DNA of 64,000 nt from a virus (taxonomy: Duplodnaviria; Caudoviricetes). Positions 15,842 through 60,987 of this stretch are shown piece after piece (positions within the stretch are counted from its first letter, which is position 1; each line of letters starts with the position of its first letter). Made by a program: the position numbers and the translations under genes. Location of the stretch: IMG/VR virus record IMGVR_UViG_3300023178_000006. The stretch is one strand, 5' to 3'. The notes under the pieces were generated by a model. That model saw only the letters and a program-made list of their open reading frames with translations. It did not search any database and was not told where the DNA came from.

Positions 15842-15895
15842 TAAATAGAAAAGTAATTACAATATAAAATCGCCTGACTGGGGAGAGTGAACCGA

Positions 15896-21800: not shown

Positions 21801-24800
21801 GGGGTGACCAAGTTCAGTACAATGCTGAAGTAGCGTCTGAAGTATTCCGTGCAACAAGACACATGCGTGCACCTATCTACTATGATGGTAATGATGCAAA
21901 CTTTTACCTAGACCCTAACAGTATTTCTATTTTAAATGATGTTAGAGCAAGTATTTTCTACGATAGAGATAATACTAACTATTATGTCAATCCAGCTGGT
22001 ACTTCAGTAACAAATGTAATGAGAGCTCAGCGTTTTGCACACGTTGATGATGTTTCACAAAACGACGTATTTGGTTTATACTTTAGTGCTAACCAAAGTG
22101 ATGCTTATGCTATCTACCGCGAAGGCGGTGCTTGGACTAACCCTTATCCTGATTTAAGAATTGCTTTCCACACCGGTATTAAGTTTGGTGCTAATGCTTC
22201 TTACCAAGGTATGCGTTTCTATACTGATTATAACATGGTAACTCAGGTCATGTCAGTCAATAATAGTTCAGACCCATTAGGTGGCGGTAACGTATATGTT
22301 AATAATAACTTACAAGCCGGTTCTTCATTAAGAGCTCCAATATTCTACGATAGTAATAATACAAACTTTTATGCAAACCCGCTTGGAACATCTAGATTCC
22401 AAGTACTTCAAATGGTACCAACCGCAGGATATAACAGTACTGGTGGCACACCTGCAACCGTAAGACTTGGTGATGAAACAAATAATACTAATGCAACTCT
22501 ACAAGAAAGTAGAAGACCAGACATAACTCTAAGAGGACAATATCCTCAGTTGAATATTATGTCATCTCGTATTAATAACGGTACTCACGGTCCTACTCTA
22601 AGATTTGTTGCCTATGATAGTGCTAATGCTTCTTCAGGTAACTTTAAGCATTGGGTAATTGGTACTTCTGGTACAAATGCAACATCGTTACACTTCGGTT
22701 ATTCACCTAACCAATCAAACCCACACTATGGTATTGGTCAAGGTTGGTCAAGTGGTAACAACGTTTCTATATTCTGGATACAAAATGACCGTAACGTATA
22801 TGCAGAAAATGATATGCGTGCTAGACGTTTCGTTGATAGGGATAACACATCTTACTTTACACACCCTGCTGACAGGTCAGATTTATATGATTTAAGATTA
22901 CGTAGTAATTATGTAAGAACATATTATCATTCAGGTTCTAACTTTGTTAATGGTACTCTTGTAAGAACAAGTATTCCTGCGACAGCAACCAACGGTGCTT
23001 CTTATGTATTAGAAGCAACAGGTAAATCATATTCAGGTGATGCACCATTCTCATTCATAGCTCAAGGTTACTTATACGCTAATACAATCATTAACCATTC
23101 TGGTCAACACTTTGGTAAGGCCGGGTTCACCACAATGCGCGCATTTGAAAATGGTGGAGTATTATGTTTCTGGTGGCCAAGAGTATCTTATTGGAACTCA
23201 TTCGCCGTTCACGTAAGAAACGCAAATGGTGATGATAGAAACTTAGTCACAAGTGTTTCAAACTCTTCGTTGCCAAGTTACTCGAAAGGTGTAACAACAA
23301 CAATGAGAACAACTGCGGTATATAACACCAACATTAATACAGGTGATATGTACGCAACACGTTATTATGATAGTAATAACACAGCTTACTATGGAGACTT
23401 TGCTTCAACATCAAGAATGAATGAAGTATCAGTCAATAGAACAAATCACTTGGGCGGAGCTCCTGCTTACTTCTATACAAGTTCAGGCAACTTGCGCGGA
23501 TATATTCGTGCAACTGAATCTAATGATTCTCACTTTGAATTTGCTACATCAGGTGGAGAGGATTTCATCTTCCGTGATGGTGGATTCGGAGGTTCTTGGA
23601 ATCAAATCATTCGTGGTAATGGTCATGTATTAGTATCGTCAAGATTTGATACTCCTATTATGTATGATAGGAATAATACTGGTTACTATGTCAATCCAGC
23701 CGGTGCTTCACAATTCTCATCTGTTTATGCAAATGACTGGTTTAGACCACAAGGTGGAACTGGTGTTTATTGGCAGGATTATGGTTATGGTATACGTTCA
23801 GCGGGTGGTGAAGGAAACCCATACGGAAACATCGCAACTTACAACACTGGTAGAAATGGTTGGAGTGGTTATGGTATAGGTACTCGATGGACTCTGATGT
23901 CCACAGAGGGTAACAACTGGGGTATGCATGATAATTCTCGTGGTTGGAACTACTACTATAACGGTTCATATCATAGATTCTATTATGGATATGTTTATTC
24001 AAGTGAATCTTTCCGTGCTCCAATATTCTATGATTTAGATAACACTGGTTATTATGGAAACTTTGCTGGCGATACTAACTGGCAAGGTCTAACTGCTCGT
24101 GGTCAAGCAATGATTGGATTGCCTGGTCATACAAGAAGTGGTGCAATAAGTAACTACGGTAGAAGACCTAATATTACAGGTGACTCAAACTATTGGACAG
24201 GTTCCAAAGGTTGGGGTAGAGTAAATATGAACACAGTCGGTGACTGGGGTTCAGGCTTCTTCGATTCATGGTCAAACCCACCTAACCAACCTTCAGGTAC
24301 ATCTCACTGGGTTGGTGTTCAAGCATATCACTACACTAATGGTTCAGCAAGGTATGGTTGGCAGTTAGCGGGTGGTCCAATTGCTAACTTAAGATTTAGA
24401 AATACTTGGTCAGGATTCTCAAGTTGGAAAACTGTTCCAATGTTGGATGTTAACAGTTCCAACGGTGGTTCAATGTATGCTGGTCGTTATTATGATTCTA
24501 ATAACACAGGATATTATGGAGACTTTGCATCTACATCGAGAATGAATGTCATTGACATCAATGAAGGTTATAACTACGGTTGGTGGAGAAATAGAAACGC
24601 AGGCCAAGGTTTATATAACCAATCTACAGGTCGACACTTCTATAGCCCAGGGTCAACATATTGGCATCTAGACGGTGCAAGTGGCTCAGGTGGATTGATT
24701 ATATATGACCGTTATAACGGTTCTCAAGGAAGTAGTACAGGTCGTCGTGGTTATCTTTACTATAATAGTTCAGGTTTTGGATTATTAAACAGTTCAGGAA

Positions 24801-26224
24801 ACTGGGGTGTAAGACTTAACCCAGGCAATTCATATACTGAGATTTATAACATCACATATATGAATGATGCAAGAGCTAATATTTACTATGATAGAGGCAA
24901 TACTGGTTACTATGCTAATCCAGCTGGTACTTCATTATTCAATGAAAACAGAAACAACCAAACACACTTTGGTAGAGATTCAAGGTCTGGTTATGGTGGT
25001 CAATACGGAACATACAGCTCATACTTCAAGCGTATGGCCTATATGTCATTCGACTGGAATGCTAACTATGATTATTACTACTATCACGGTCTTGCTTCAA
25101 CAGACATTAATGGTTCGTTCACAGATTCGATGTCACTTAACTCGTTTAATGACATTAACTTAAGACTTGACTCGAATAATAATAACGGAAACTCTTACGT
25201 ACGTATTCACGATAATGGTTATACCAATGCACAAAACGTAGCATATATCGGTAGAGAAGGTGGAAACGCAATCGCATACTTCTATAACAGAGTATATGGT
25301 GCAATCTTCTATGATAGTAATGATGGTGGATATTACTTAGACTTAAACAGCACATCAAACTCAGCACAGAGAATGAGAGGTGGTGTACTCCACGGACCTA
25401 ACCCAACTTGGGGTAGATACTTATATGTTGGTGGTAATGGTCACTGGACAAGTTCATACGCATCGGTTGCAACAACTAACGGTAACCTTCACTTAGATTG
25501 TCAAGGTGGACGTAGTACATATATTAACTGGTACGTTGGTGGAACAACTTACATTAATGGTACACTACAAGTTAACTTCATCTATGATAGAGATAATACT
25601 GGTTATTATGTAAATCCAGCAAGTACTTCGAGGTTTAATGCAATAGAAGTATTTGGAAATGCTGCTTACATAAGAGGTAGCTCACCTACACTATACTTTA
25701 GAGATACAAACCATCGTTCAGCGATGATACACAACAACTCGAACTTATTGTATATTCTTAGAGGTTCTGGTAATGATAGTACATCTTGGTCTTCATACGC
25801 TGGATACTGGCCTGTATATTGGAACTTAGGAAATAACGATGCGACATTCGGTGGTTCTATCTGGGCACGTACTAACATCACTGCATACTCTGATGAAAGA
25901 TTAAAAGAGAATGTAGAAACAATTGATGGTGCTCTTGATAAAGTTCTAAACTTACGTGGTGTTTACTACAACTGGAAGTCAGATGAAGAGAAGACAAGAA
26001 AAGTTGGTGTAGTAGCTCAGGAAGTAGAACCAGTATTACCTGAAGTTGTTATGCTTCACCAAGATGCCGAAGATAAAGAAGGTACTCTTGCGGTTGATTA
26101 TGGAAATATAACAGCAGTTCTTATTGAAGCCGTTAAGGAACAACAAGAACTAATAAATAACCAGAAAGAAGAAATCAGCGAACTTAAAGAGATGGTTTCT
26201 GCATTGATGGATAAACTTAACTAA
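15896..26224 (+). CDS. Giant long tail fibre/adhesin, about 3440 aa, with a C-terminal peptidase S74 chaperone
   Basis: The ATG at 15896 follows a GGGAGAG RBS (ORF track starts at GTG 15887). About 25 (Y/F)YD.NNT.YY..P/F.S.S repeats by my count; C-terminal YSDERLKENV...GVVAQEVE..LPEVV...YGNITAVLIEAVKEQQ. Confidence 0.85.
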   Translation: MANDKKFIVKNGLLTPENAVIGTTTDNGVDQLQVTGTTNLSGEASISSNTASSATLDVHNFLGAGSSTIVATFRGDSDALQVKNIGTGDYSIVNTQQNNGIIFYDSTPGVVIQYNGSDRLNIDSTGNHFTGLSTTDIDGNRIITTADEGPGNGFDADTVDGLEAASFLRSDADDTGTGNYIFTKDLTVNQNVQIDGDLTVSGNTTYVDTETILLSDNIITLNANHSGAPTQNAGWEVNRGSSANSGVLWDETNDWFKLNSAGNDLGRIITTADEGPGNGFDADTVDGLEGAQFLRSDVDDTANGVITFANSSTIFGDGTGAVTITYDVSGNNRQIYVNAGVWGILNQTAGFGMSLDSNDDLYINRDIRANRHITADDNITSTAGNIEATAGSVTAGTTVNAGTNVVAGGTVTGTQFIDADDSGYYLNPNDTSILQTVGIDDNLIHNGNQDTRLAFTTDTIKLDTDGTTRLTANNTGVHIDNLNVGTLIADSGSFNTEVESPIYYDKDDRNYYGDFAGDSQMNTIDIDDYVRHRGDTNTYFGFNGNDQAVIYTGGTEALFANNTIVRTTRTLQVSKFQDADDPSYEVDPAGTSIMNTIGIDDYIFHNGDTDTYFGFNANDNYQIFTGGTQRLEVNGTFITGAVDGFFPNLYAARYYDSGNATYYGDFASTSRVNDISLVGQIIHDGDTDTYLDFNGADSFQVVTGGSQRLLVNNTYVLANNQMRSPIYYDNNDTAYYGDFASTSQMNRIDINDYIRHRGDTNTFMGFDANDSITFQTGGAERVNITDANTTFYQPITVQGDVIGDRFVDRQSNSYYVNPADTAVSGTFAGGLRIGNISDYANWDDNSGNGGIGIAGHGAIAAGQNPTITVSGNYSGGYALLYLNRIDPTTNPTNNGQRYIHFYHDGTSGGSIRGDSFGNLYNVNNAGSTWGFWTSGYTETLIADDSGNVMVQAGSSPTYTDGGDNTALTTTPSNPVLHVGGSIYLNGNDDGIIFGRGTASFLKDEELAFGWGGGWYMQDGTYLRVRNNKTIYSTGDAWFNRVYAQQNQAYYLDPDGDSQLNTVDIDDYIRHRGDTNTYIGFAANDTFRVWTNGNQRLNIDNDSADFSINVYAPRYYDSNDNAFYADPAGTSIFRRLNVYSGETTGELNVGRGSTQRFRHYITDGIGYIQYWQDETDGTDHSVRFEILSSSSGANIFQFNRPIVLTSNQTVTASKFIDSDDTRYYLDPNATGNPGNISGVFNGAVSFGLPGNGTANNAEAQKGRWLSIEGNADTSGEGSSRIFFTEHNSTTGSMSAYGMSLGYRGGSTSIVGADGNTWTGLGQISNGQWGLWGHDGNATGQWAMRGPRSGSFVQASGSFRAPIFYDSNNTNFYVDPNSSSRMDTIVLNDGVTLRSPNGDYGSFAIDGAARNGWEGFSIGDRMVFMHDNSNTVGVYNDVDNEWIWYAERNSYMRLMYNGGEQARTDNGYFRANNQLRTPIFYDLNNTAFYVDPNSTSNIQNLIVNGTFTQGGYEQNNPVESRWYQQGTYSYSTSQTPNTQYYWIPVGVTNNGGAKGFLEYYAKDDVNYSGNVIGRIVISSWNNSSISIDHHTTGPLNSAVPKVRVDNNNRIWMQMDGITWDSYVRWHWVAISGITIEDGSARQLTTPANSIEILTGQQVRATLGNVTGASVTNTRHHFGEIEVRGQTRSPIYYDLDNTGYFGDFASRSRFNTLELGNQGALTSSTSYPLGIYHNNRYLIGFRNSGADANYPWLVHDNVNGKSAFIIHFNGKGDRFYVDEDGDTVFSGDITADEMFARRFVDTDNNSYFVDPASNSFMASITLQQNTVGQAYAGVATQPTYYIGQQRGDNDAWKIYGESPGGTNTGNLILQSEDDYDSNESIRFRFKRTYGAYDTNDVLQAFYNYVYSPSSFRSPIFYDSNNTAYYANPASQSHFNTLTLQGNRLGFVNSSFDAEIRVSDNNPDGTGATFEFWGDQVQYNAEVASEVFRATRHMRAPIYYDGNDANFYLDPNSISILNDVRASIFYDRDNTNYYVNPAGTSVTNVMRAQRFAHVDDVSQNDVFGLYFSANQSDAYAIYREGGAWTNPYPDLRIAFHTGIKFGANASYQGMRFYTDYNMVTQVMSVNNSSDPLGGGNVYVNNNLQAGSSLRAPIFYDSNNTNFYANPLGTSRFQVLQMVPTAGYNSTGGTPATVRLGDETNNTNATLQESRRPDITLRGQYPQLNIMSSRINNGTHGPTLRFVAYDSANASSGNFKHWVIGTSGTNATSLHFGYSPNQSNPHYGIGQGWSSGNNVSIFWIQNDRNVYAENDMRARRFVDRDNTSYFTHPADRSDLYDLRLRSNYVRTYYHSGSNFVNGTLVRTSIPATATNGASYVLEATGKSYSGDAPFSFIAQGYLYANTIINHSGQHFGKAGFTTMRAFENGGVLCFWWPRVSYWNSFAVHVRNANGDDRNLVTSVSNSSLPSYSKGVTTTMRTTAVYNTNINTGDMYATRYYDSNNTAYYGDFASTSRMNEVSVNRTNHLGGAPAYFYTSSGNLRGYIRATESNDSHFEFATSGGEDFIFRDGGFGGSWNQIIRGNGHVLVSSRFDTPIMYDRNNTGYYVNPAGASQFSSVYANDWFRPQGGTGVYWQDYGYGIRSAGGEGNPYGNIATYNTGRNGWSGYGIGTRWTLMSTEGNNWGMHDNSRGWNYYYNGSYHRFYYGYVYSSESFRAPIFYDLDNTGYYGNFAGDTNWQGLTARGQAMIGLPGHTRSGAISNYGRRPNITGDSNYWTGSKGWGRVNMNTVGDWGSGFFDSWSNPPNQPSGTSHWVGVQAYHYTNGSARYGWQLAGGPIANLRFRNTWSGFSSWKTVPMLDVNSSNGGSMYAGRYYDSNNTGYYGDFASTSRMNVIDINEGYNYGWWRNRNAGQGLYNQSTGRHFYSPGSTYWHLDGASGSGGLIIYDRYNGSQGSSTGRRGYLYYNSSGFGLLNSSGNWGVRLNPGNSYTEIYNITYMNDARANIYYDRGNTGYYANPAGTSLFNENRNNQTHFGRDSRSGYGGQYGTYSSYFKRMAYMSFDWNANYDYYYYHGLASTDINGSFTDSMSLNSFNDINLRLDSNNNNGNSYVRIHDNGYTNAQNVAYIGREGGNAIAYFYNRVYGAIFYDSNDGGYYLDLNSTSNSAQRMRGGVLHGPNPTWGRYLYVGGNGHWTSSYASVATTNGNLHLDCQGGRSTYINWYVGGTTYINGTLQVNFIYDRDNTGYYVNPASTSRFNAIEVFGNAAYIRGSSPTLYFRDTNHRSAMIHNNSNLLYILRGSGNDSTSWSSYAGYWPVYWNLGNNDATFGGSIWARTNITAYSDERLKENVETIDGALDKVLNLRGVYYNWKSDEEKTRKVGVVAQEVEPVLPEVVMLHQDAEDKEGTLAVDYGNITAVLIEAVKEQQELINNQKEEISELKEMVSALMDKLN

Positions 26225-26272: not shown

Positions 26273-26280
26273 TATAAATA
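26273..26280 (+). promoter_or_regulatory. T4-type late promoter TATAAATA
   Basis: Exact consensus upstream of the ATG at 26312. Confidence 0.7.
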
Positions 26281-47440: not shown

Positions 47441-47515
47441 TGGTAGCCCGTAGGAGAATCGAACTCCTGTTGCATGGATGAAAACCATGTGTCCTAACCA
47501 CTAGACGAACGGGCC
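47441..47515 (-). tRNA. tRNA-Glu (anticodon TTC) with encoded CCA
   Basis: GGCCCGT acceptor strand, CATGG-TT-TTC-AT-CCATG anticodon arm, CAGGAG-TTCGATT-CTCCT T-arm, ACGGGCT-A-CCA end; 75 nt. Confidence 0.95.
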
Positions 47516-47764
47516 GGATAAAAAAACGGCAATCCTTCCATATACGCCTATCAAAGGTATGTCAAGGATTGCCTAGGTATTGAATTTCAGTGTCACAATC
47601 GTCATTTGGTCTTACTGCCGGACTACCGGGCCCGTCGACTAAACGGGGATTTCAAACTACCTTAAAATCAAAATTTGGGGGGATGGATTTGTGTTAACGT
47701 AATTCGTTAAATAGTGTAGAATTGTTAATCGTAAATCCTGTCCCTACCCCGAGCTCGAAGCCCC

Positions 47765-48290
47765 TATTATTGAAACTGGTATAAAATCGCAGGTACGTCT
47801 CTCAGACTAACATGGTACTCGTTAATCCCAGTCTCGGTTGGTACCTAAGTACCATCTCTGCCTAAAGGGAATAAAGCCTGGACCGCCGTCCTGTGTCCCT
47901 CGGTTTCCTTGCGGGGAATTTGAGGTTCTTCCTTTTCCATTGCGGACCTTCCGAGGGTCTAGTACTTCATCTTGTGTTTCCGCACCTCTTTGGTCTCTAC
48001 AGTATCGAGCGTTTCTTCATACATGGAGACGCTTTCCCACCTGCTCTAATGATTTTGTTGTCACCCGTATAATTACGTACTTTCCAGTACTGGCCTTCTC
48101 ATTACTCTAACCTATCCTAGCTTGCAATCTTTGGACTCGGTTAGTTTCAGCTGCCAGTCGGGCGACTTTACTTCCTACACTTAAGACCTTCACGTTTGGT
48201 AAGAACGTCCATCAATCTAATTCTCTTCGCCGAATGTGACCACTATTTCAGACACTTTCCCTTTCCGGCGGGGAGTATTCCGTCATTATG
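47765..48290 (-). ncRNA. Candidate large structured non-coding RNA of about 520 nt, possibly extending to about 47520
   Basis: Has its own perfect sigma70 promoter and no credible ORF on the sense strand; GC-richer than its flanks; many hairpins and a long-range helix (see findings). Confidence 0.65.
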
Positions 48291-48296
48291 TTAGAT

Positions 48297-48325
48297 ATTA
48301 TACCACAGCTTTTTGAAATTGTCAA
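48297..48325 (-). promoter_or_regulatory. Early sigma70-type promoter driving the ncRNA/tRNA transcript
   Basis: Minus strand TTGACA (48325-48320), 17 nt, TGG-TATAAT (48302-48297); A-tract UP region. Confidence 0.85.
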
Positions 48326-48363
48326 CTGTTTTTTGCAAAAAAGTTGCACTTTTTTTCAAGAGC

Positions 48364-48579
48364 TTATTTTGAGTTTACGAACTCATTCAGTTCAGAAGCT
48401 ACAGAAATGATATCCTGTGCTGAAACTGAGGTTGTAGGTAATGATTTCTTATCATCAGGGTGATTGTCGTTATGATTATACGTAGCGTCAATCTTCCTTT
48501 GTAAGTTATCGTATAGTATGGATTGAGCCATACTGAGTAGGTCGGCACGTATCTCGTACCCAGATTTTCCGTTTGACAT
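48364..48579 (-). CDS. Hypothetical protein, 71 aa (YEIR.DLL.MA family)
   Basis: GGAGG RBS; K..YEIR..LL.MA...II..A.EL..FV pattern common in T4-like phages. Confidence 0.7.
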   Translation of the reverse strand: MSNGKSGYEIRADLLSMAQSILYDNLQRKIDATYNHNDNHPDDKKSLPTTSVSAQDIISVASELNEFVNSK

Positions 48580-48616
48580 AATTTCCTCCTTGTGTGTATG
48601 TGTGTTTATGTCTTTA

Positions 48617-48925
48617 TTAAACTGTTAGGTATTCGTTAATTCTCCTAACAGTGTCTATTTCAGTTTGTGGATTATTCCACATCCTGTTTCTTGGACTTGG
48701 ATGCGGTATCTTTAAATGAGACACCTCATTCTTATCCAACCAAGTAGAAGCGATATTTCCTAAAGCAATAACTTTATCATATCGTTTTACTAAGTTAATG
48801 TCATCGTATGAGCGGTTAGTCCAATCAAATTGCCTACCTACCCACTTGATAACTCTGTTCTTTGTTGGTGATTTTTCTGGTGTTGTTTTACCAGGCGCTT
48901 CACCTACTATAATCAAAGATTCCAT
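48617..48925 (-). CDS. Minimal uracil-DNA-glycosylase-superfamily-like protein
   Basis: IIVGEAPG, VIALG..A and IPHPSPRNR motifs of UDG-fold proteins; only 102 aa. Confidence 0.55.
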   Translation of the reverse strand: MESLIIVGEAPGKTTPEKSPTKNRVIKWVGRQFDWTNRSYDDINLVKRYDKVIALGNIASTWLDKNEVSHLKIPHPSPRNRMWNNPQTEIDTVRRINEYLTV

Positions 48926-52496: not shown

Positions 52497-52504
52497 TATA
52501 AATA
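52497..52504 (+). promoter_or_regulatory. T4-type late promoter heading the csg operon
   Basis: Exact TATAAATA 46 nt upstream of the ATG at 52550. Confidence 0.7.
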
Positions 52505-52549
52505 GAACATGTATAACCCAGTAGGGCTAATACAAATAACAGGGATTAT

Positions 52550-52846
52550 ATGGAATCAGTACTACAATTAATATCCGAGCTAGGTTTACCTATTGCTGGT
52601 GCATTAATTATGGGATTCTTCATCTTCATTATTATTAAACAAATTTTTGAAGGAATCATTGATAGCATTAATACTTTAAATATGTTCTGTGAAAGCCTAG
52701 AGAATAGAGCGAGAACTATGTCTAATGAGGTAGTTAAAATCGATTTGCTCGTGTCTAGCGCACTTGGATTAAATCCCGACATCGAGCGTATAGCTCGGGC
52801 AGAAAATTTTATTGAAGACGGAAAACTCGACGTAAGGAGAGACTAA
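52550..52846 (+). CDS. Single-TM plus coiled-coil membrane protein
   Basis: LISELGLPIAGALIMGFFIFIII helix followed by heptad-like segment; paralog of 53048. Confidence 0.65.
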   Translation: MESVLQLISELGLPIAGALIMGFFIFIIIKQIFEGIIDSINTLNMFCESLENRARTMSNEVVKIDLLVSSALGLNPDIERIARAENFIEDGKLDVRRD

Positions 52847-53061
52847 TGCTATTTTGTGGTTATCACTTCAGTTTAAGTGCTGGAGGGGATTTACTGATTT
52901 TTGACGAAGGTGACGGAGAGTTAACCTTAGAAAAGTTTGAGTGGAAACCTGGTGATGAATTCATCGCTTCTCAAACTGAAAATGGTGCTGTAACACTTAG
53001 AAGAAAAGCAGACAGAATATATAATCCAAAACAACTGGATTTATTCGATGGAAGAATTTGA
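52846..53061 (+). CDS. Hypothetical protein, 71 aa
   Basis: TAATG coupling upstream and overlap downstream. Confidence 0.55.
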   Translation: MLFCGYHFSLSAGGDLLIFDEGDGELTLEKFEWKPGDEFIASQTENGAVTLRRKADRIYNPKQLDLFDGRI

Positions 53062-53332
53062 TATTATAACACTCGTTAGTGAGTACGGGTTTCCTACAAT
53101 TATGGTGATTGGGTTAGGATATTTCGTGTACTTTGTTTATAACTTTATACAAGAGAATATTTTACCAACAATCGATAAAATGCATTTTCAATTAATCAAA
53201 GTGATTGATAGAATGAGAATGCTAGACCAGGATTTAATTAGACTGCAAGAGAAGGTAGACGTAGTTTTAAAATATAAAGAAAATGAGAAACTGAGAGAGG
53301 CAGGTGAAAAACATGATAAAAAAGATAATTGA
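53048..53332 (+). CDS. Single-TM plus coiled-coil membrane protein (paralog of 52550)
   Basis: LVSEYGFPTIMVIGLGYFVYFVY helix then coiled coil. Confidence 0.65.
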   Translation: MEEFDIITLVSEYGFPTIMVIGLGYFVYFVYNFIQENILPTIDKMHFQLIKVIDRMRMLDQDLIRLQEKVDVVLKYKENEKLREAGEKHDKKDN

Positions 53333-53819
53333 TGTAATTTTATTATCCGTTCTAACAATTGGTATTGCAAATGCTGAGCCTATTGTTCACAAATTCAAAA
53401 ATCCTAGTTTCAGTGGTGTTGGAACAGGTGCTCATTATCTCACTATTGAGAATCAAGAACATTCACGTAAGAAAGCAATCAAAGATGCATTAGATGCAGC
53501 CGAGAGAGCAGCACAACGAGAAATTGATAATTCAACATTATCAAAATTTATACGAAATTTAGAGAGTAGGATTTACGCTCAGTTAGCAAAACAATTAGTA
53601 GACAATATGTTTTCTAACGACGACCCTGTAAGATTTGGGTCCTTTGTTTTAGAAGGGTCAACAGTTACATATGAAGTTATTACAAACGCTGACGGAACAG
53701 AATTTATTAAAATGACAATTGTAGATGAAGATGGTACTACAACTGTTATTGAAATACCAATTGGTTCAGGTAACTTTGGAAGTGATGGAGATACTGGTGG
53801 GGATGGTGACGGTGGCTAA
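53313..53819 (+). CDS. csgF: Curli assembly component CsgF-like
   Basis: Signal peptide ending IANA; mature N-terminus EPIVHKFKNPSFSG resembles the CsgF F.NP.FGG motif; A..QN-like ENQE; F..NLESRI..QL...L; GSF.LEG.TV. Confidence 0.8.
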   Translation: MIKKIIDVILLSVLTIGIANAEPIVHKFKNPSFSGVGTGAHYLTIENQEHSRKKAIKDALDAAERAAQREIDNSTLSKFIRNLESRIYAQLAKQLVDNMFSNDDPVRFGSFVLEGSTVTYEVITNADGTEFIKMTIVDEDGTTTVIEIPIGSGNFGSDGDTGGDGDGG

Positions 53820-54780
53820 ACTTTTATCCGCTGTATTTTTATCACTATTATTAGCAAGTTGTGCACAGATGCCACAATGGTCTGAAGGACCAGCATATTG
53901 TGAGTATGGTGAAGGAAGATATGCACAAGGATTTAATACCGATTTTGATAATGATGGTATTATAAATGATGATGCTTTAAGTGTTGGAAAACAACTATAT
54001 ACTGGTACTCGTAAGTATATTGAAACAAAACAAATATGTGTTGAGGCACCACAAGTTGTAAGGTTACCATCATATATTGATTTGCTTAATTTACCACCTG
54101 CTAAAAATAAGCCTGTGGTTGCTGTATATCAATTCCAAGATAAAACAGGACAACGTAAAGATTCAGTTACAGGGCAAAGTTTCTCCACTGCGGTAACACA
54201 AGGTGGAACAGAATTATTAATTGACGCACTCAAAACCGCAGGTGATGGTACATGGTTTAGAGTAGTAGAAAGACAAGGTATTGATGCTTTAGTAAGAGAA
54301 CGACAAATTATTCGTTCGGGCAGAGATGAAGCTGCAAAAGCATTAGATGTTGAACCACAAAAATTAGGACCACTTTTATTTGCAGGTATGATAATCGAAG
54401 GTGGTATTATTGGATATGATAGTAATATACAAACTGGTGGACGAGGAGCAAGAACTCTTGGGATTGGATTTAGTAAATCATACAGACAAGACCAAGTCAC
54501 TGTTTCTTTAAGAGCAGTATCTGTTCTCACTGGTGAAGTACTATTAAATGTTCAAACTAAAAAGACAATTTTAAGTTATGGTTCCGGAGGAGATGTATTT
54601 AGATTCATAGAGCAAGGAACGCAATTGATAGAATATGAAGACGGTGTAGGAAATAATGAAAGTGTGACATACGCAGTACGAACAGCAATTGAAGCTGCCG
54701 TATTGGAAATGGTTTATCAAGGTAATCGTCGTGGATACTGGGAGATAGACTGGAATAAAAATGAAGAGGAAAAAGAATGA
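53803..54780 (+). CDS. csgG: Curli secretion channel CsgG-like outer-membrane lipoprotein
   Basis: Lipobox LLASC; VAVY.F.D.TGQ.K, STAVTQG....LIDALK...WF.VVER.G...L..ERQIIR, PLLFAG.IIEGGI.GYD.N..TGG.GAR.LGIG.S..YR.D.VTV.LRAV.V.TGEVL..V.T.KTILS. Confidence 0.92.
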   Translation: MVTVAKLLSAVFLSLLLASCAQMPQWSEGPAYCEYGEGRYAQGFNTDFDNDGIINDDALSVGKQLYTGTRKYIETKQICVEAPQVVRLPSYIDLLNLPPAKNKPVVAVYQFQDKTGQRKDSVTGQSFSTAVTQGGTELLIDALKTAGDGTWFRVVERQGIDALVRERQIIRSGRDEAAKALDVEPQKLGPLLFAGMIIEGGIIGYDSNIQTGGRGARTLGIGFSKSYRQDQVTVSLRAVSVLTGEVLLNVQTKKTILSYGSGGDVFRFIEQGTQLIEYEDGVGNNESVTYAVRTAIEAAVLEMVYQGNRRGYWEIDWNKNEEEKE

Positions 54781-55511
54781 ATAAAAAACTTTTAGGCCTA
54801 AGTTTAGCTTTTATTATGATTCCATTTTTAACATTTGCTCAAGCAACTGATGATAACGAAATCAACATCGAACAGGATGGTGATACTCTTACTTTGTATA
54901 TCGACCAATACGGTTACGGTAACAAAATTGGAGCTGATGATTTTAGTTCATCTTCAAGTGCTATGGTTATAACTGGTTCATCTGTAAATATGAACATTGA
55001 CCAAATTGGTAACTCAAACTTATTATTTGGTCCATTAATTGCAGATAGCTATGTTCTGAATCTATTATTTACTGGTGACAGTAACTCTTGGGATTGGGAT
55101 ATCGGTTATGTTGGTTCTTCAGATAGTTCTACAATGGATGTAGATATTACTGGTGATTCTAACACTATGGATTTTGACCAAGGATACAATGCAAGTGCGG
55201 AAAGATTGGATTTTGATTTAACAGTTATTGGAGACAGTAACATTTTTGATGTTGACATTGACGTTGACGACGCAGTTTGGAATTTCGATATTACTGGTGG
55301 AAGCAACAATATCAATACATTACAAAAGGACGGAGCGGAGCATGAGATTAACTTGACTCACGTAGGTTCTTCTGCTGATATTGATATTAACCAAATCAGT
55401 GGTACATGTCCTACAGGTGTTTCTACTTGTAATGGCATAATTACGTTGGATGTCGATAGTGAAAATGCAACAATTCAGATTAATCAAAAAGATTCATCTA
55501 ACGATTCTTAG
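54777..55511 (+). CDS. Curlin-like secreted beta-solenoid protein 1
   Basis: Sec signal peptide; repeated x-I-x-Q/T-x-G-x-x-N units (INIEQDGD, YIDQYGYGN, NIDQIGNSN, DITGDSN, TVIGDSN, DITGGSN); adjacent to csgG. Confidence 0.7.
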   Translation: MNKKLLGLSLAFIMIPFLTFAQATDDNEINIEQDGDTLTLYIDQYGYGNKIGADDFSSSSSAMVITGSSVNMNIDQIGNSNLLFGPLIADSYVLNLLFTGDSNSWDWDIGYVGSSDSSTMDVDITGDSNTMDFDQGYNASAERLDFDLTVIGDSNIFDVDIDVDDAVWNFDITGGSNNINTLQKDGAEHEINLTHVGSSADIDINQISGTCPTGVSTCNGIITLDVDSENATIQINQKDSSNDS

Positions 55512-56619
55512 CGCATTTCTTTTATTACTACCATTGGGTCTGTCTGCAGCAGACTCAATCGGTAGTATAATTGAACACAAGGGAAGTGCTTCACTTACTC
55601 GTGAACAGGGTGAAGAGCTTGTCGTGAGTGGTTCATTTATACCAGAAGTTGAAATGAACGACACGGCCGAAACAGAAAACGGTCGAATGCTTATCGAATT
55701 CTTAGATAAAGCAGAACTCAGTCTTACAGAAAACACAAAAGTATACATTGATAGAGTATACTACGACCCAGACCCAAGCAAATCAAAAATGGCAATGAGA
55801 ATGGCAATGGGAACTGCAAGGTTCGCATCAGGTCGTTTGGGTATGGTCAACAAAAATAATATAGACATACAAACACCCACAGCTACCATATCAGTTCGTG
55901 GAACAGATTTTACAACAACCATAGATGAATTAGGAAGGTCACTGGTGATACTTTTACCAGACCAATATGGTAATCCATCTGGCACAATAGAAGTTTCAAA
56001 TTTAGGTGGTACGATTGTCTTAGAAGAGGCTTACGCGGCCACTATGGTATCTACATTAGATAGTCCACCGACTCCTAAAGTACAAATAACTAATATAACA
56101 CCAGCGATGATTGATAACATGTTTATCGTTTCTCCTCCACCTGAAGTGAAAGAAGCAATTGACGAAGAAATGCAAGATGACGCAAATGAAGACCAAGGAT
56201 TACTTGACATCGACTTTTTAGAATTCAATGAATTAGAAAAAGATTATCTTGAAGATGACGCATTAGAATTTACTGAACTAGACATTGATTTTCTTGATGT
56301 TGATTTCTTAACAGACGTTTTAGATGTCGTTGAAGAATTAATTAAAACAACTGCAGCACTTGATGATAGAGCTATCTCAGGTACATCTTTAGGAGCTCAA
56401 CTTAAAGGTGCAGCATTTGGACTTAATGCTGATTCTCAATATAATATTTACGAAGACAGTGGTAAGATTATATTTTATAGAAACGTAGAAGGTACGATAC
56501 AACTCGCATTTGCGGTAGATGCTTCAGTTAAAATCGATACTGAAGTGGACGGATATTCTGGTATCATTGACTTGAACCAAGGTCAAGATTCTGTAATAGT
56601 AATTAAACAAGGTGGATAA
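55465..56619 (+). CDS. FecR-domain periplasmic protein with an acidic linker
   Basis: Signal peptide; D...T.NGR..I.F.D...L.L.ENT...ID...G..RF.SG...I.TPTATI.VRGTDF motif of the FecR domain. Confidence 0.8.
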   Translation: MQQFRLIKKIHLTILSAFLLLLPLGLSAADSIGSIIEHKGSASLTREQGEELVVSGSFIPEVEMNDTAETENGRMLIEFLDKAELSLTENTKVYIDRVYYDPDPSKSKMAMRMAMGTARFASGRLGMVNKNNIDIQTPTATISVRGTDFTTTIDELGRSLVILLPDQYGNPSGTIEVSNLGGTIVLEEAYAATMVSTLDSPPTPKVQITNITPAMIDNMFIVSPPPEVKEAIDEEMQDDANEDQGLLDIDFLEFNELEKDYLEDDALEFTELDIDFLDVDFLTDVLDVVEELIKTTAALDDRAISGTSLGAQLKGAAFGLNADSQYNIYEDSGKIIFYRNVEGTIQLAFAVDASVKIDTEVDGYSGIIDLNQGQDSVIVIKQGG

Positions 56620-56627
56620 ATAATAAA

Positions 56628-56852
56628 ATGGAAAAAGAAATACTTAAAATAATTGCAAATCGATGTGATTGCTCTTTAGAAGAAGTCACAAACGAAAAAC
56701 ATATCGTAGATGATTTAAACGCGGATTCATTAAGTGTAGTAGAAATCATTATGGACTTAGAAGCCGAATTTAATATTCAAATTACTGATGAAGAAGCCGA
56801 AGAATTATTAACAGTAAAACAGATTAAAGAATATGTCGAGGTGAATACCTAA
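56628..56852 (+). CDS. acpP: Acyl carrier protein
   Basis: DLNADSLSVVEIIMDLEAEFNIQITDEEAEELLTVKQI with the DSL phosphopantetheine-attachment serine. Confidence 0.9.
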   Translation: MEKEILKIIANRCDCSLEEVTNEKHIVDDLNADSLSVVEIIMDLEAEFNIQITDEEAEELLTVKQIKEYVEVNT

Positions 56853-57226
56853 TGGCAAGTATACATTATCTCAAAAGAACAGCTGGTGAAGCGGTCGTAA
56901 AGATTTACGAAACAAGTAGCAGCGGCGATACAATAGAATTAGATATTGCTAATTTAATTTCAGATGGTCAAACATTTGATGCTAATTCAGCTAACGTCAC
57001 AATTAAAGAAATCTTTTGGGGTGTAAAACATAACCACTATATTGACGTATCTCGTAAAGAACGAGGTGGTTCTAATGTTCATGGTCATTATTATTTAGTC
57101 AATGCAGGTTCATATGATTACGATGGATTTGTAGATGATGTATATTCAGAAAGAAACATACAAGTATTACTTGATGGACCTGGTCATGTCATACTTAAAT
57201 TAAATAAAACAGCTGGTTATAGTTGA
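56852..57226 (+). CDS. Hypothetical protein, 124 aa
   Basis: TAATG coupling to acp; beta-rich. Confidence 0.6.
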   Translation: MASIHYLKRTAGEAVVKIYETSSSGDTIELDIANLISDGQTFDANSANVTIKEIFWGVKHNHYIDVSRKERGGSNVHGHYYLVNAGSYDYDGFVDDVYSERNIQVLLDGPGHVILKLNKTAGYS

Positions 57227-57963
57227 TGGACGAATTTGATAGAAAATTAGATAAATGGTTATTAGGTTTCAGTTGGTGCCTATTGGGAATGTATTTTCTT
57301 TTGGCAACTGGTAAAGCTTATGCAGATAATGTTATAACCATTGAACAAACTGGTGATAATTTAAATTTAGAGATTCAGCAATATGGTGCTGATAACGAAA
57401 TTAAAATGTTAGACCAATATTCGTATATTAACGCGTCATCGTTAGATTTATTAGTTGTTCAATATAATACTGCAGGTAATGATAACACAATAGTATTTGA
57501 TGAAATCAGTGGAACAGGTAACGAATTTAAATTGGGTCAAGGTGTTGCTTTTGATAACACCACACAAGGTTGGAACTATGATGGTGCCGAAGGCGGTGGT
57601 CATTATATGGAAATAGATTTATATGGTAATGATAACTTTGTTGAATGGCATCAAACAAATCAAAGTGATGCAACTGACGGACATGATTTTAACTTACATG
57701 TTGCTGGGTCTGATAATTGGATAGATGGAAGACAACAATCTTCAGGCGCAAAAGAAGCAAACATTACACTTTATAATTCAGACAACGTTTTAACATTTAG
57801 ACAGAAAGGAGCTAACGCAACTCACTCAGCAAATATTACCTTAGATGGTATTTACGGAACGACAGCAACTATTAGACAAAATAGCACAACCAATCAAACA
57901 TACAATTTATCAGTGGATTGTTATACAGTTGGTGGTTGCTCAGTGAATGTGCTACAAGAATAA
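57223..57963 (+). CDS. Curlin-like secreted beta-solenoid protein 2
   Basis: Signal peptide ending AYA; repeats ITIEQTGDN, EIQQYGADN, DLYGNDN, HVAGSDN, TFRQKGAN; C-terminal Cys pair. Confidence 0.65.
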   Translation: MMDEFDRKLDKWLLGFSWCLLGMYFLLATGKAYADNVITIEQTGDNLNLEIQQYGADNEIKMLDQYSYINASSLDLLVVQYNTAGNDNTIVFDEISGTGNEFKLGQGVAFDNTTQGWNYDGAEGGGHYMEIDLYGNDNFVEWHQTNQSDATDGHDFNLHVAGSDNWIDGRQQSSGAKEANITLYNSDNVLTFRQKGANATHSANITLDGIYGTTATIRQNSTTNQTYNLSVDCYTVGGCSVNVLQE

Positions 57964-58277
57964 TGCAAGAGTTAGATGATTTTGGAAATCCAGTAGGAAC
58001 ATTATATCCGGGTGATGAAGGTTGCCCTCAAGATATGATTTGTTTAACCGAAGAAGGATTTAACCAAATGCTTTCTGAAGCTGATATGTATTATAATACA
58101 GAAACATTCCAAGTTGAGCCGATGGGCGATGCTGAAGCAATTATAGATTTCACAACGGATTTATTGTTCTTGGATATTTGGACTATTTTAAATATGGCAG
58201 TACCATTAACAATTTTCGCAGTATATGGTTTAACATTATATGCAGCAGTAAAGTATATCCAAAAGAAGTTTAGTTAA
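57963..58277 (+). CDS. Small membrane protein with a C-terminal TM helix
   Basis: ATG at 57963 (TAATG coupling); acidic N-terminus and hydrophobic C-terminus. Confidence 0.55.
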   Translation: MQELDDFGNPVGTLYPGDEGCPQDMICLTEEGFNQMLSEADMYYNTETFQVEPMGDAEAIIDFTTDLLFLDIWTILNMAVPLTIFAVYGLTLYAAVKYIQKKFS

Positions 58278-58278
58278 A

Positions 58279-60321
58279 ATGAAATGGTTAACAAAGTGGT
58301 GGACGGTATTATTCACCATTGCTGGTTTTTCAGCGTTACAAATATCAAACCCAAATTTTATTCAAAGTATAGAGTATTCTTATTATGACTATCTCCATTC
58401 AAAAAAGGAAAAAATTGCGTCGGAGGATATCGTCCTCGTCAACATTGACGAAAGAGCTATCAGAGCACAAGGCCAATATCCTTGGCCTAGGGGGAACATT
58501 GCTGATTTCATTAATGCTGGTCCTGCTGATTCTCTTTATGTCTTAAACATAATATATTCTGAAGAAGATAGATTTGGTGAAGATAACGAACTTGCAGAAG
58601 CACTGGCCAATAGAGCTGTTGTATTATCATCAGCACCCACACAACAAACATCTGGTGGAATAGGAACCTTTGTAGGTGTTGCCACTTTTGGAGAACAAGA
58701 TGAAAATTGGTTGTATGAATTTCCAGGCCTTTTGTACCCTATTGAATCTCTTTCTAATTGGGTTTTTGGTGTTGGGGCCACCGTTGCTATTCCTGATGAA
58801 CCAACAGGTGTCGTGCGAAGAGCACCCCTCGTTGTTAAAGCAGCCGGGAATCCTTATCCATCTCTCGCCCTTGACACACTACGAGTGTACACCGGAGAAC
58901 CAAGCTATCAAATGAAAGTAGGCACCAATGGTGTCGAATGGATTCGCATGGGTCGACAAGACCCAATCACTACAAACTCCTTCGCAGAAGTCCCTATAGC
59001 TTTCTGGAATGAATTCGAACAAGTCAGTATATTAGACCCATTACCCGAAGGTAAAGTTTTAATCTTTGGTATTACAGCTGAAGGATATGCTAATCCAGTT
59101 GCAACCCCATTGGGTGCAGTGTATCCCCACGAAGTTCAAGGTCATTTAATTCAGACCGTTCTTTCAGGAGTCGAAATACAGATTCCCGACTGGAAGCCAA
59201 TAGCCGAGCTCGGTCTTCTGGTGTTATTGAGTCTAGGTATCCTTGGAGCGGTCTATATCTTGCCCATAACTCTTGGGGTGATAAAGAGTCTAATTCTGAT
59301 TTGCGGTTCTTATGGAGTATCATTGTATCTCTGGAATGATGCTTTAATCTTTGTTGACGCGACCTTAAGTTCATTTGCTTCCTTAGTAGTTTTTGCCCAA
59401 TCAAGTTTTAACAAGTATTTTATCACATTTTTAGAGAAACGTCAACTAGCAAAACAGTTCGCTGGTTATGCTTCTCCTACAGTCGTTCGTTTACTCCAAG
59501 AGAATCCTTCTCTCGTTAAAGAGGGAATGAAAAAAGAAATTAGTATTTGTTTTTCTGATTTAAGAGGATTTACACCACTGGGTGAAAGCTTCGGAGATGA
59601 CGTACAAGGATTAACGAAGTTAATGAATGGGTATATGGATTCAATCACTGAGCCTGTCCTTAACGCTGATGGAATGATTATAAAGTATATAGGCGATGCT
59701 TCGATGCACATACACAATGCGCCTATTGACGACCCTGAACATCCTAAAACTGCAGTACAAACTGGAATCAATATGCTAAGGAGTGTAGAAAAATTCAATG
59801 AAAAGATTACAGCAGAAGGTCGACCACCAATTGGCATGGGGGCTGGGATTAACACTGGTCTTGGTTATCTTGGTGAGATGGGTTCTACAGAACGACACAG
59901 TTATGATGTACTTGGTGACAGCGTTTCAACTGCTGCACGAATTGAGTCAAAATGTAAAGAATATGGTTGCTTATTATTAGTTGGCGAAGAAACAGTTAAA
60001 CGATGTTCTCCTAATGATTTCTTTTTCCTTAAAGTAGACGACCTTGCAGTAAAAGGAAAAACAGTAGGAATTGGAATATACACAGTATTAGACCTTGATA
60101 AGAATAAATATATTAAACCGGCCGAGATGCATGAAGCAATGCATCAGAATTACCGTAAACAAAACTTCGATAAAGCTATTAAAATATGTAACGACCTTAT
60201 GGAATGTTTTGAAGGTCAGATGGAAGGTTACTACAAGATGTGGATTGAGCGTTGCGAATATATGAAAACGCAAGATTTACCGAAGGATTGGAACGGTGTC
60301 TTTATTGCTACGACTAAATAA
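58279..60321 (+). CDS. CHASE2-domain class III adenylate/guanylate cyclase
   Basis: N-terminal TM; CHASE2 motifs IV.V.IDE.AI...GQ.PWPR and DG/TGVVRR.PL; TM bundle; cyclase motifs FSDLRGFT, KYIGDA, GINTG...G.MGS..R..Y.V.GD.V..AAR.E. Confidence 0.92.
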   Translation: MKWLTKWWTVLFTIAGFSALQISNPNFIQSIEYSYYDYLHSKKEKIASEDIVLVNIDERAIRAQGQYPWPRGNIADFINAGPADSLYVLNIIYSEEDRFGEDNELAEALANRAVVLSSAPTQQTSGGIGTFVGVATFGEQDENWLYEFPGLLYPIESLSNWVFGVGATVAIPDEPTGVVRRAPLVVKAAGNPYPSLALDTLRVYTGEPSYQMKVGTNGVEWIRMGRQDPITTNSFAEVPIAFWNEFEQVSILDPLPEGKVLIFGITAEGYANPVATPLGAVYPHEVQGHLIQTVLSGVEIQIPDWKPIAELGLLVLLSLGILGAVYILPITLGVIKSLILICGSYGVSLYLWNDALIFVDATLSSFASLVVFAQSSFNKYFITFLEKRQLAKQFAGYASPTVVRLLQENPSLVKEGMKKEISICFSDLRGFTPLGESFGDDVQGLTKLMNGYMDSITEPVLNADGMIIKYIGDASMHIHNAPIDDPEHPKTAVQTGINMLRSVEKFNEKITAEGRPPIGMGAGINTGLGYLGEMGSTERHSYDVLGDSVSTAARIESKCKEYGCLLLVGEETVKRCSPNDFFFLKVDDLAVKGKTVGIGIYTVLDLDKNKYIKPAEMHEAMHQNYRKQNFDKAIKICNDLMECFEGQMEGYYKMWIERCEYMKTQDLPKDWNGVFIATTK

Positions 60322-60967
60322 GTTATTAATTGGAGTTCTTTTATTAGCACTTCCAGCTGAAGCTTACATACCAAAACAAAAATTTTATCCAACTTACGTT
60401 GACCCTGCAATGATTGCAAAATTCAAAGCAGGTCATACCGCACCTTATGATGACGCATATGTTCGTCGAGTTGTTGTAGGTAAAGCTCGAATAATGGAAA
60501 ACGGTGCTATTATTACTTTACCACACGGACCAGAACTTGTTCCTCCTCTAAAAGATTTAATGCATCACCCAAAGTTTAAGGAAAAGAAACCAACCCCACA
60601 ATTCTCAGAAAATAGTATAAATTTAAATCTTGACATGTCCTCTCCAGAATTTTATTGGAATGAAAGAGAAAAAAGATGGATTGATTTATTCTTTTGGACC
60701 ACACAGATACTCGATGTATATTCAACTTATAAAGGTATGAAGTATTCTTGTTTAACTGAAGCGAATCCTTTATTACCTGAAGTTCCAGAAGTACATGAAA
60801 TGGTCGGTTTAAAGTTAGGTGTTATTGGTGGAATAAAATTTGTTTTAGATGGTGATGATACCTTTTGGTATGATTGGAAATTAGGTGCAGGCGTTTCAAC
60901 TGGACTTGTTGTAGCAAATAATTTTAGATTAATTAATAAAGCCGAGAGACAGTGCGAAAAAAGATAA
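60296..60967 (+). CDS. Hypothetical exported/membrane protein, 223 aa
   Basis: Signal-like N-terminus; C-terminal DVYST..G.......EANPLL motif with hydrophobic segments. Confidence 0.55.
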   Translation: MSLLLRLNKLLIGVLLLALPAEAYIPKQKFYPTYVDPAMIAKFKAGHTAPYDDAYVRRVVVGKARIMENGAIITLPHGPELVPPLKDLMHHPKFKEKKPTPQFSENSINLNLDMSSPEFYWNEREKRWIDLFFWTTQILDVYSTYKGMKYSCLTEANPLLPEVPEVHEMVGLKLGVIGGIKFVLDGDDTFWYDWKLGAGVSTGLVVANNFRLINKAERQCEKR

Positions 60968-60987
60968 GGGAGCCTTTCGACTCCCTT
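60966..60987. terminator. Probable bidirectional terminator ending the csg operon
   Basis: AAGGGAG-cctttcga-CTCCCTT hairpin at the convergence of + and - gene blocks. Confidence 0.65.

Follow-up and report, generated by a model that had tools for sequence, protein, structure and literature searches.

We analysed a 64,000-nt window of the IMG/VR record IMGVR_UViG_3300023178_000006 (Caudoviricetes), the window being the whole stretch of DNA under study, in which a run of plus-strand genes encodes a curli-type secretion pore together with two putative curlin-repeat proteins, a secreted FecR-domain protein and a CHASE2 nucleotide cyclase. The window is part of a T4-like myophage genome: PHROGs matches upstream of the curli genes identified the large terminase, tail sheath, portal, scaffold and major head protein, and the capsid region shares 76-78% DNA identity with Methylophilales phage Melnitz and Pelagibacter phage HTVC008M. 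The window belongs to a phage related to these two, a T4-like myophage that is uncultured and of marine or salt-marsh origin. Thirteen consecutive open reading frames (ORFs), all on the plus strand, occupy positions 52550-60967, and because the junctions between them span only -47 to +8 nt, the thirteen-gene unit is tightly coupled. A megablast search of the unit against 50,697 phage records returned no match, and relatives are detectable at the protein level only.

The unit begins with two small bitopic membrane/coiled-coil proteins of 98 and 94 amino acids (aa), which are encoded at 52550-52846 and 53048-53332 and match phrog_18771 at 2e-23 and 2.5e-26, respectively. They are accompanied by a CsgF-like protein with a signal peptide (53304-53819; Pfam CsgF 1.5e-16, phrog_35372 4.9e-39), a CsgG lipoprotein of the outer-membrane pore family (53803-54780; Pfam CsgG 4.5e-56), curlin-repeat protein 1 (curlin 1; 54777-55511), which has 244 aa and a Sec signal peptide, and a secreted FecR-domain protein of 384 aa (55465-56619, with the start taken as 55465; Pfam FecR 2.8e-9, phrog_37870 2.8e-68). 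Further downstream lie curlin-repeat protein 2 (curlin 2; 57223-57963), a 246-aa paralog of curlin 1 that also carries a signal peptide, and a 680-aa CHASE2 class III nucleotide cyclase (58279-60321; CHASE2 1.4e-28, Guanylate_cyc 2.6e-16). The two curlin assignments come from membership in families that match Curlin_rpt, and curlin 1 is in addition a predicted beta-solenoid. A first-pass annotation of this DNA had proposed the same set of genes plus an acyl carrier protein (ACP), and Pfam matches to CsgF, CsgG, FecR, PP-binding, CHASE2 and Guanylate_cyc confirmed the set at the positions given there. All genes named in that annotation are present, but four further ORFs, namely an AbrB/MazE-like ORF of 71 aa and ORFs of 124, 104 and 223 aa, had gone unnamed.

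The cassette is almost certainly a further copy of the published pelagiphage-type viral curli (type VIII secretion) module and not a novel system. Zaragoza-Solas et al. 2020 (PMC7029224) described a 'curli operon' in pelagimyophages and proposed 'sibling capture', and Wittmers et al. 2022 (PMC9599517) described a region in podo- and myophages that is composed of one or two 'HK' genes, CsgF, CsgG, CsgA/B, FecR, a frequent second CsgA/B and an adenylate cyclase. The gene set and gene order that characterize the viral type VIII secretion system (T8SS) module of the latter authors are found in the window, which has the same genes in the same order as HTVC008M, Melnitz and HTVC023P-type podophages. 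In the GenBank records of Melnitz and HTVC008M, two small hypothetical proteins are followed by CsgF, CsgG, a curlin-associated repeat protein and a FecR-domain protein, and then by a second curlin-repeat or hypothetical protein and an adenylate/guanylate cyclase. By tblastn, HTVC008M and the four Melnitz isolates each encode CsgG within a few kb of the cyclase. The identities of the window proteins to those of Melnitz/HTVC008M were 48/43% and 39/47% for membrane paralogs 1 and 2, 40/42% for CsgF, 49/54% for CsgG, 24/32% for curlin 1, 34/37% for the FecR protein and 52/33% for the cyclase. Buchholz et al. 2022 (PMC9004378) discussed CsgG and CsgF of Melnitz alone, stated that csgA and csgB are lacking and proposed a pore for lysis timing. 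The view that Melnitz-type relatives lack amyloid subunits, which the first-pass annotation had adopted, is outdated: Melnitz and HTVC008M share the curlin-repeat, FecR and cyclase genes with the window, in the same order.

The conservation of the module was assessed in 74 IMG/VR viral loci that were fetched by means of the cyclase. Both membrane paralogs, CsgF, CsgG, curlin 1, the FecR protein and the cyclase form a core that is conserved as a unit in phages and was co-present in every locus with enough flanking sequence, and curlin 2 was found in most of the loci. The membrane paralogs were always paired; the pair is found upstream in the same orientation or, on the other strand, downstream of the cyclase. 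Relative to the cyclase, the block from csgF to FecR has the reverse orientation in a few loci, and there are insertions of extra genes between the parts. A scan with the FecR profile also returned contigs that carry the whole phage module and are filed in metagenome-assembled genomes (MAGs) of mixed taxonomy (L077-L092). Their labels were Rhodobacterales, Sphingobacteriales, Synechococcus, Planctomycetaceae, Saprospirales, Pelagibacter, Flavobacteriaceae, Luteolibacter, Legionellales and Polynucleobacter, and one 'Rhodobacteraceae' bin contained five CsgG copies, each on a separate contig. We considered these contigs as evidence of a cellular origin and rejected them, since they look like mis-binned phage DNA.

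CsgG most likely starts at the ATG at 53803, has the lipobox LLASC and matches E. coli CsgG (4uv3) with an E value of 3.5e-50 over residues 85-322. The CsgG proteins of the window's clade are 316-351 aa long, compared with 245-290 aa for most other phage copies, and their lipobox Cys is separated from the conserved domain by approximately 75 additional residues, two of them Cys (53803-54170). CsgF has an FKNPSFSG-type motif at the mature N-terminus. Homologs of CsgF that are 36-84% identical were present in all complete loci, and a phmmer comparison with solved E. coli CsgF gave no match, the protein being too diverged. As in E. coli curli, the window combines a CsgG lipoprotein pore, a pore-binding-type motif in CsgF and subunits with curlin repeats and signal peptides. 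Unlike in E. coli, these subunits are approximately 245 aa long with irregular repeats and Cys pairs, and residues Y51 and N55 of CsgG are replaced.

The first-pass annotation had placed curlin-like cargo beside the pore, and this assignment held at the level of protein families. The window copies themselves match Curlin_rpt below the Pfam cut-off (E values of 0.0015 for curlin 1 and 0.015 for curlin 2), and 26 of 38 curlin 1 homologs (best 6e-10) and 15 of 29 curlin 2 homologs match it. A search of all PDB sequences with the curlin 1 family profile placed the solved curlin-repeat protein 8c50 first (2.7e-4) and CsgA of E. coli second (8enq, 5e-3), and the curlin 2 profile matched 8c50 at 1e-9. 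In curlin 2, residues C233, G238 and C239 are invariant, forming a C-terminal Cys...GGC pair. Both proteins are conserved across divergent phages, and there is a good case, based on these profiles, that the two families qualify as curlin-repeat proteins. The AlphaFold (AF2) model of curlin 1 is an all-beta solenoid with a pLDDT of 83. VIA-align matched this model to beta-helix proteins at Z 13-17 and to phage tailspikes and fibres at Z 11-12, and Foldseek found nothing significant in PDB and Swiss-Prot. Because VIA-align returned only generic beta-helix matches and Foldseek returned none, the modelled fold says beta-solenoid, which is consistent with a curlin and is not specific to CsgA.

The FecR protein consists of a signal peptide, a FecR domain (residues 33-195), an acidic helical linker and a C-terminal beta domain (312-382). 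Its AF2 model has a pLDDT of 78, with a confident FecR domain and a low-confidence linker. The FecR domain aligned with the C-terminal cell-surface signalling domain (CCSSD) of PupR (6ovk) at Z 15.3 over 136 residues with a root-mean-square deviation of 2.6, and the model matched FecR clusters in AFDB at 1e-17 to 1e-11, whose members are proteins of 430-1250 aa with the FecR domain at the N-terminus. The window protein shares the periplasmic FecR/CCSSD fold with E. coli FecR and Pseudomonas PupR. Unlike these anti-sigma regulators, it has a cleavable signal peptide as its N-terminus and no cytoplasmic anti-sigma domain or transmembrane (TM) anchor, and neither FecI nor a TonB-dependent transducer is encoded nearby. 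For the C-terminal domain, structural matches reached only Z 2-2.5; the 'cell surface anchoring domain' 5ix9 was tried as a clue to this domain and was rejected because it maps to residues 29-126.

To place the phage protein among its cellular relatives, we compared the FecR profile with approximately 400 alphaproteobacterial genomes, in which the domain occurred only within large proteins; no full-length protein of the phage type was found outside phage contigs. When eight alphaproteobacterial loci were picked by their FecR-domain match alone, six had a homolog of CHASE2 and/or a class III cyclase within 10 kb. Seven genuine alphaproteobacterial CsgG loci had neither FecR nor a cyclase within 10 kb, and the linkage of the window's module to FecR and a CHASE2 cyclase sets it apart from these csg loci. 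The bacterial MAG locus L095 contains FecR, a 939-aa gene, a CHASE2 cyclase and a response regulator. In the literature, CHASE2 cyclases of Campylobacterota cluster with a FecR-domain outer-membrane protein, a TPR protein and a phosphodiesterase (PMC9239204), and a Burkholderia operon is composed of a response regulator, a LysM/FecR protein and a CHASE2 kinase (PMC5192318). The cyclase CyaD1 of Sinorhizobium without its CHASE2 domain produces cyclic AMP (cAMP) constitutively, which suggests that CHASE2 keeps the cyclase off.

Two of the six alphaproteobacterial loci with a CHASE2 or cyclase neighbour are as follows. A 1.2-Mb SAR11-family sequence (L156:6649-12161) encodes a CHASE2-SpoIIE (PP2C) membrane phosphatase, a 435-aa gene and a 504-aa FecR protein, followed by an alternative oxidase, and appears to represent a host-lineage FecR-CHASE2 pair with a phosphatase output. 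At the alphaproteobacterial locus L162:8616-14948, a gene for a Slam-like protein (TPR plus SlipAM barrel) is followed by genes for a FecR protein of 909 aa, whose C-terminal barrel resembles TbpB, and for a CHASE2 adenylate cyclase. This arrangement suggests that a dedicated outer-membrane translocon can have, as its surface lipoprotein-like cargo, the FecR partner of a CHASE2 sensor.

As in the bacterial FecR and CHASE2 clusters, the window encodes a FecR protein with a signal peptide beside a CHASE2 sensor, a sensor that in many bacterial cases is itself a class III cyclase. The bacterial FecR partners are larger (500-1250 aa or more) and are often accompanied by TPR, Slam-like or beta-barrel partners, a phosphodiesterase or a response regulator; the phage FecR protein differs from them in its length of 384 aa, its own C-terminal domain and its position among secretion genes. 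From these gene neighbourhoods, FecR and CHASE2 appear to be a bacterial sensor pair that is independent of curli and was brought into the phage module, and the module can be read as a fusion of two bacterial units, one for secretion and one composed of FecR and CHASE2. Complex prediction for CHASE2 (residues 22-322) with FecR (28-225) gave an ipSAE of 0.39 compared with 0.01 for the best control, graded as 'weak support'; the mark used in this prediction is reached by 58 of 80 solved complexes and by 2 of 110 mismatches. The runs shared at least 73% of their contacts, with a partner pLDDT of at least 76. That FecR and CHASE2 act as one sensor is, in our judgement, somewhat more probable than the contrary.

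The cyclase contains a periplasmic CHASE2 domain between TM helices (residues 21-319) and a Guanylate_cyc domain (417-595). Its canonical residues include the metal-binding Asp residues D427 and D473, the Lys/Asp specificity pair K469 and D543, and R554. Because of the Lys/Asp pair, ATP is the expected substrate, as far as this can be predicted from residues. Among 67 distinct phage homologs, 59 have D543/S550 and eight have S543/N550, and bacterial CHASE2 cyclases have T/N at these positions; the D/S and S/N pairs covary perfectly across the 67 phage sequences. The S543/N550 subtype is of the HTVC008M type, has a length of approximately 605-615 aa and lacks the C-terminal approximately 80 residues (L002, L015, L077, L078, L080, L082, L085 and L089). 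Ser550 therefore reads as a fixed trait of the dominant phage subtype that covaries with the specificity position, so far as an alignment can indicate.

The two membrane proteins at the head of the unit, which precede CsgF, evidently correspond to the 'HK' of Wittmers et al. Both have an N-terminal TM helix and a helical tail; they are approximately 21% identical to each other and have a common G-F-P motif. Only G12, P14, F24 and R53 are conserved among 42 paralog sequences, and His is entirely missing from paralog 1 of the window. No kinase or ATPase domain was found with Pfam and PDB profiles, which matched only coiled coils and, weakly, YvrJ; the nearest named Atlas cluster of paralog 2 was likewise YvrJ (0.88), which we treat as a lead only. 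We rejected the 'histidine kinase' label because there is no conserved His and no DHp or HATPase_c domain in proteins of only 94-98 aa. Judged by their sequences, the paralogs are most probably a conserved pair of bitopic membrane coiled-coil proteins and not kinases.

The first-pass annotation had also proposed a late promoter at 52497. The T4-type, late-promoter-like motif TATAAATA is indeed present at 52497-52504 on the plus strand, 53 nt upstream of the first gene, and its copies are non-randomly placed before plus-strand starts. The number of copies in the window, eight, is close to the 7.4 expected by chance; all eight are on the plus strand, and seven are located 21-80 nt before a plus-strand start. 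The starts preceded by the motif include those of the sheath gene, the major capsid gene and the first gene of the curli unit. The binomial P-value for this placement is 7e-11, and it becomes approximately 2e-5 once the share of AT-only 8-mers that lie in such start-upstream zones (16%) is used. Of 69 first module genes in related loci, 23 are preceded by the exact motif, as are 6 of 58 csgF genes and 13 of 87 cyclase genes; it was never found before the second membrane paralog, csgG, curlin 1 or FecR. With its -10 position and its setting before late genes, TATAAATA has the properties of a T4-type late promoter, and late timing is predicted for the unit.

A perfect sigma-70-type promoter at 52338-52310 is directed leftward, away from the unit, and because of this opposed promoter the 270-nt gap upstream of the unit would constitute a divergent early/late control region. 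It is one of three perfect (12/12) sigma-70-type promoters on the minus strand, all leftward, the others being at 51633-51605 and approximately 48327-48299. At least two of the three have a TG extension, and they have a common flanking sequence of the GTCAACTGTTTTTGTGAAAAAAGTGCAAC type. They are likely to be phage early promoters that lie opposite to the late-promoter-like motifs of the plus strand.

The window was nearly complete in at least 11 salt-marsh DNA runs and partial in six metatranscriptome runs, the samples being from salt-marsh and coastal sites. Contigs from four RNA runs covered the membrane paralogs, csgF, curlin 1 (in all four runs), the ACP, curlin 2 and the cyclase, which is consistent with transcription of the module. 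More widely, viral curli proteins and FecR have been reported at all 65 GOV2.0 stations, with matches in metatranscriptomes (Wittmers et al. 2022, PMC9599517).

These observations can be combined into a mechanism that we favour with moderate confidence, namely that the phage installs a curli pore, exports curlins and adds a FecR/CHASE2 envelope sensor. Late in infection, the lipoprotein CsgG and CsgF would form an outer-membrane pore in a host without one, and the two Sec-exported curlin-repeat beta-solenoid proteins would be the cargo of this pore and form surface fibres. The FecR protein as a periplasmic partner and the CHASE2 cyclase as an inner-membrane sensor would be a second, originally separate bacterial unit that the phage lineage joined to the secretion genes; the FecR domain would contact the CHASE2 domain and thereby modulate cytoplasmic nucleotide cyclisation. 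Export of the curlin-like proteins through CsgG is, taken by itself, somewhat more probable than not. We infer fibre formation and cAMP reporting from the gene content. Aggregation, superinfection defence and uptake have been discussed as roles of viral curli (Wittmers et al. 2022, PMC9599517).

Several results weigh against this mechanism. In the constriction loop of CsgG, F56 is kept, but N55 is replaced by Ser and Y51 by Ser beside a one-residue insertion (alignment to 4uv3). CsgE, CsgC, CsgD and CsgH were not recognised here, and we count the lack of a recognised CsgE, CsgC or CsgH as a further difficulty. No clumping of Melnitz-infected cells was observed by Buchholz et al. 2022 (PMC9004378). 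The RNA-run contigs cover the flanks of the module at similar depth, and the RNA libraries may contain DNA. On the signalling side, the transition-state Asn of the cyclase is replaced by S550, and the canonical set of six catalytic residues is therefore incomplete. No match to the cyclic nucleotide (cNMP)-binding receiver domain PF00027 came from Melnitz, from HTVC008M or from any of three large related contigs, and only two of 41 sampled SAR11-family genomes, many of which are incomplete, had one. A minor point is that the CHASE2-FecR complex score falls in the weak band. The 'complete outer-membrane-to-cytoplasm relay' of the first-pass annotation was not supported in that form: the FecR protein is without an anti-sigma or TM part, in-silico support for its contact with CHASE2 is weak, the catalytic Asn is a Ser, and a cNMP receiver was found in none of the related phages and in only two of the 41 SAR11-family genomes.

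An alternative role of the module would be lysis timing through the pore alone, as proposed by Buchholz et al. 2022, with CsgG and CsgF as a gated, pinholin- or secretin-like channel, the curlins as an accessory or plug and FecR and the cyclase as a trigger. This proposal was made for Melnitz, for which no clumping was seen; it would also suit the altered constriction of CsgG, the two small bitopic membrane proteins that always accompany the module and the late-promoter-like motif before the unit, as with the lysis genes of T4-like phages. We nevertheless regard it as unlikely, since it leaves unexplained two curlin-repeat paralogs with signal peptides that are kept across divergent phages, PHROG scans of the neighbours revealed no endolysin, holin or spanin family near the module in the window, and an outer-membrane pore by itself cannot depolarise the inner membrane. 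Equally doubtful is a mere juxtaposition of independent cargo sets in a hypervariable island, in which the FecR/CHASE2 cyclase unit would alter host physiology via cAMP with no functional tie to the secretion genes. The module does sit in a variable region, the two units are separate in bacteria, the csgF-FecR block is inverted relative to the cyclase in some loci that also have inserted genes, and FecR and the cyclase are sometimes missing from viral curli regions (Wittmers et al. 2022, PMC9599517). Against this stand a co-occurrence that holds almost without exception at 30-50% protein identity and in rearranged loci, and the placement of FecR between the curlin genes and not beside the cyclase.

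An uptake channel, in which an ungated CsgG pore admits nutrients or cofactors and FecR senses a ligand such as an iron chelate, has been suggested in the literature (PMC7029224, PMC9599517), and the lack of a recognised CsgE homolog would fit an ungated pore. It seems very improbable to us, because the curlin-repeat proteins and CsgF would have no explanation, the FecR protein has no anti-sigma part, and the partners of its bacterial relatives are CHASE2 sensors and not TonB-dependent transducers. The curlin-like beta-solenoids might instead be virion or host-recognition proteins, with CsgG and CsgF serving another purpose; the late-promoter context and the matches of the beta-helix fold to phage tailspikes and fibres (Z 11-12) are compatible with such a role. 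The profiles match specifically curlin-repeat proteins, however, both curlins have cleavable Sec-type signal peptides and are encoded away from the structural block, and the same genes occur in podoviruses with unrelated virions (Wittmers et al., PMC9599517), so that we give a virion role hardly any credence.

Within the preferred reading of an installed curli pore with exported curlins and an envelope sensor, a more specific analogy can be drawn. By comparison with the bacterial loci, the phage module may mirror a design of outer-membrane translocon, FecR and CHASE2, as exemplified by the locus L162 with its Slam-like protein, with CsgG/CsgF in place of the translocon and with FecR informing the cyclase about the condition of the pore or fibre. 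Because the Asn-to-Ser replacement is fixed and a cNMP receiver is rarely encoded, the output would in this case pass via an unrecognised receiver or a non-classical product or role outside cAMP-CRP signalling, for example in lysis timing. We consider this analogy improbable as a whole.

The window confirms the module in another lineage and leaves the general picture unchanged, in which phages of the most abundant ocean bacteria supply a secretion system and a second-messenger enzyme that their hosts lack. The points that it sharpens are the probable true curlin-repeat subunits, the apparently imported FecR-CHASE2 pair, the HK label, which should be dropped, the non-canonical catalytic residue and the absence of an obvious receiver.

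Compared with the published viral T8SS, the window adds an AbrB-like ORF, the ACP, ORFs of 124, 104 and 223 aa and the approximately 75-aa extension of CsgG. The AbrB/MazE-like ORF of 71 aa (52846-53061, plus strand) has a weak SpoVT-AbrB match (Pfam MazE_antitoxin, E value of 1e-4, below the cut-off), and its homologs were found only in loci of the window's clade (L003, L005, L006, L007 and L063). The 74-aa ACP (56628-56852, plus strand; PP-binding 1.6e-10, DSL serine motif), which had been counted as part of the unit, is not part of what is conserved: of the fetched loci, L003, the closest relative, alone has it (83%), and its homologs are otherwise scattered across unrelated phages. The 124-aa ORF (56852-57226, plus strand) has no signal peptide and no Pfam or PHROG match; it is without a homolog in the related loci and belongs to a viral hypothetical-protein cluster of 367 members. 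The 104-aa ORF (57963-58277, plus strand), whose ATG at 57963 overlaps the preceding stop codon as TAATG, has a C-terminal TM helix (tail-anchored) and no PHROG match, and its homologs are confined to loci of the window's clade (L003, L004, L008, L064 and L078). The 223-aa protein with a signal peptide/membrane segment (60296-60967, plus strand; weak DUF5658 match with an E value of 0.0039, below the cut-off) falls in viral clusters of the Atlas, and its homologs, with 25-71% identity, lie directly downstream of the cyclase in approximately 12 loci of a wider clade around the window. From this distribution, the five ORFs are probably lineage-specific insertions and not parts of the conserved machine.

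At the end of the unit, a G+C-rich hairpin between convergent units is located at 60966-60987. The hairpin, which had been proposed as the terminator of the unit, is real (9-bp stem with five G-C pairs), but its T-run lies solely on the minus-strand side, and it is therefore at best a bidirectional or convergent terminator.

Two features outside the unit were also recorded. In the structural region, a single plus-strand ORF of 3445 aa extends from 15887 to 26224, with neighbours of 1767, 1341 and 936 aa, and a copy of TATAAATA follows it at 26273. On the minus strand, a stretch of approximately 780 nt that is free of ORFs (47516-48330) lies between tRNA-Glu (47441-47515, minus strand) and the TTGACA-17-TATAAT promoter at approximately 48327-48299. 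The region from 47.5 to 48.3 kb gave no Rfam or tmRNA match and a fold z-score of -1.27. Metatranscriptome depths at 48000-48768 were 157, 168, 24 and 65, compared with 1-20 elsewhere in the interval from 48 to 64 kb, and the stretch is a candidate for an abundant phage non-coding RNA or leader.

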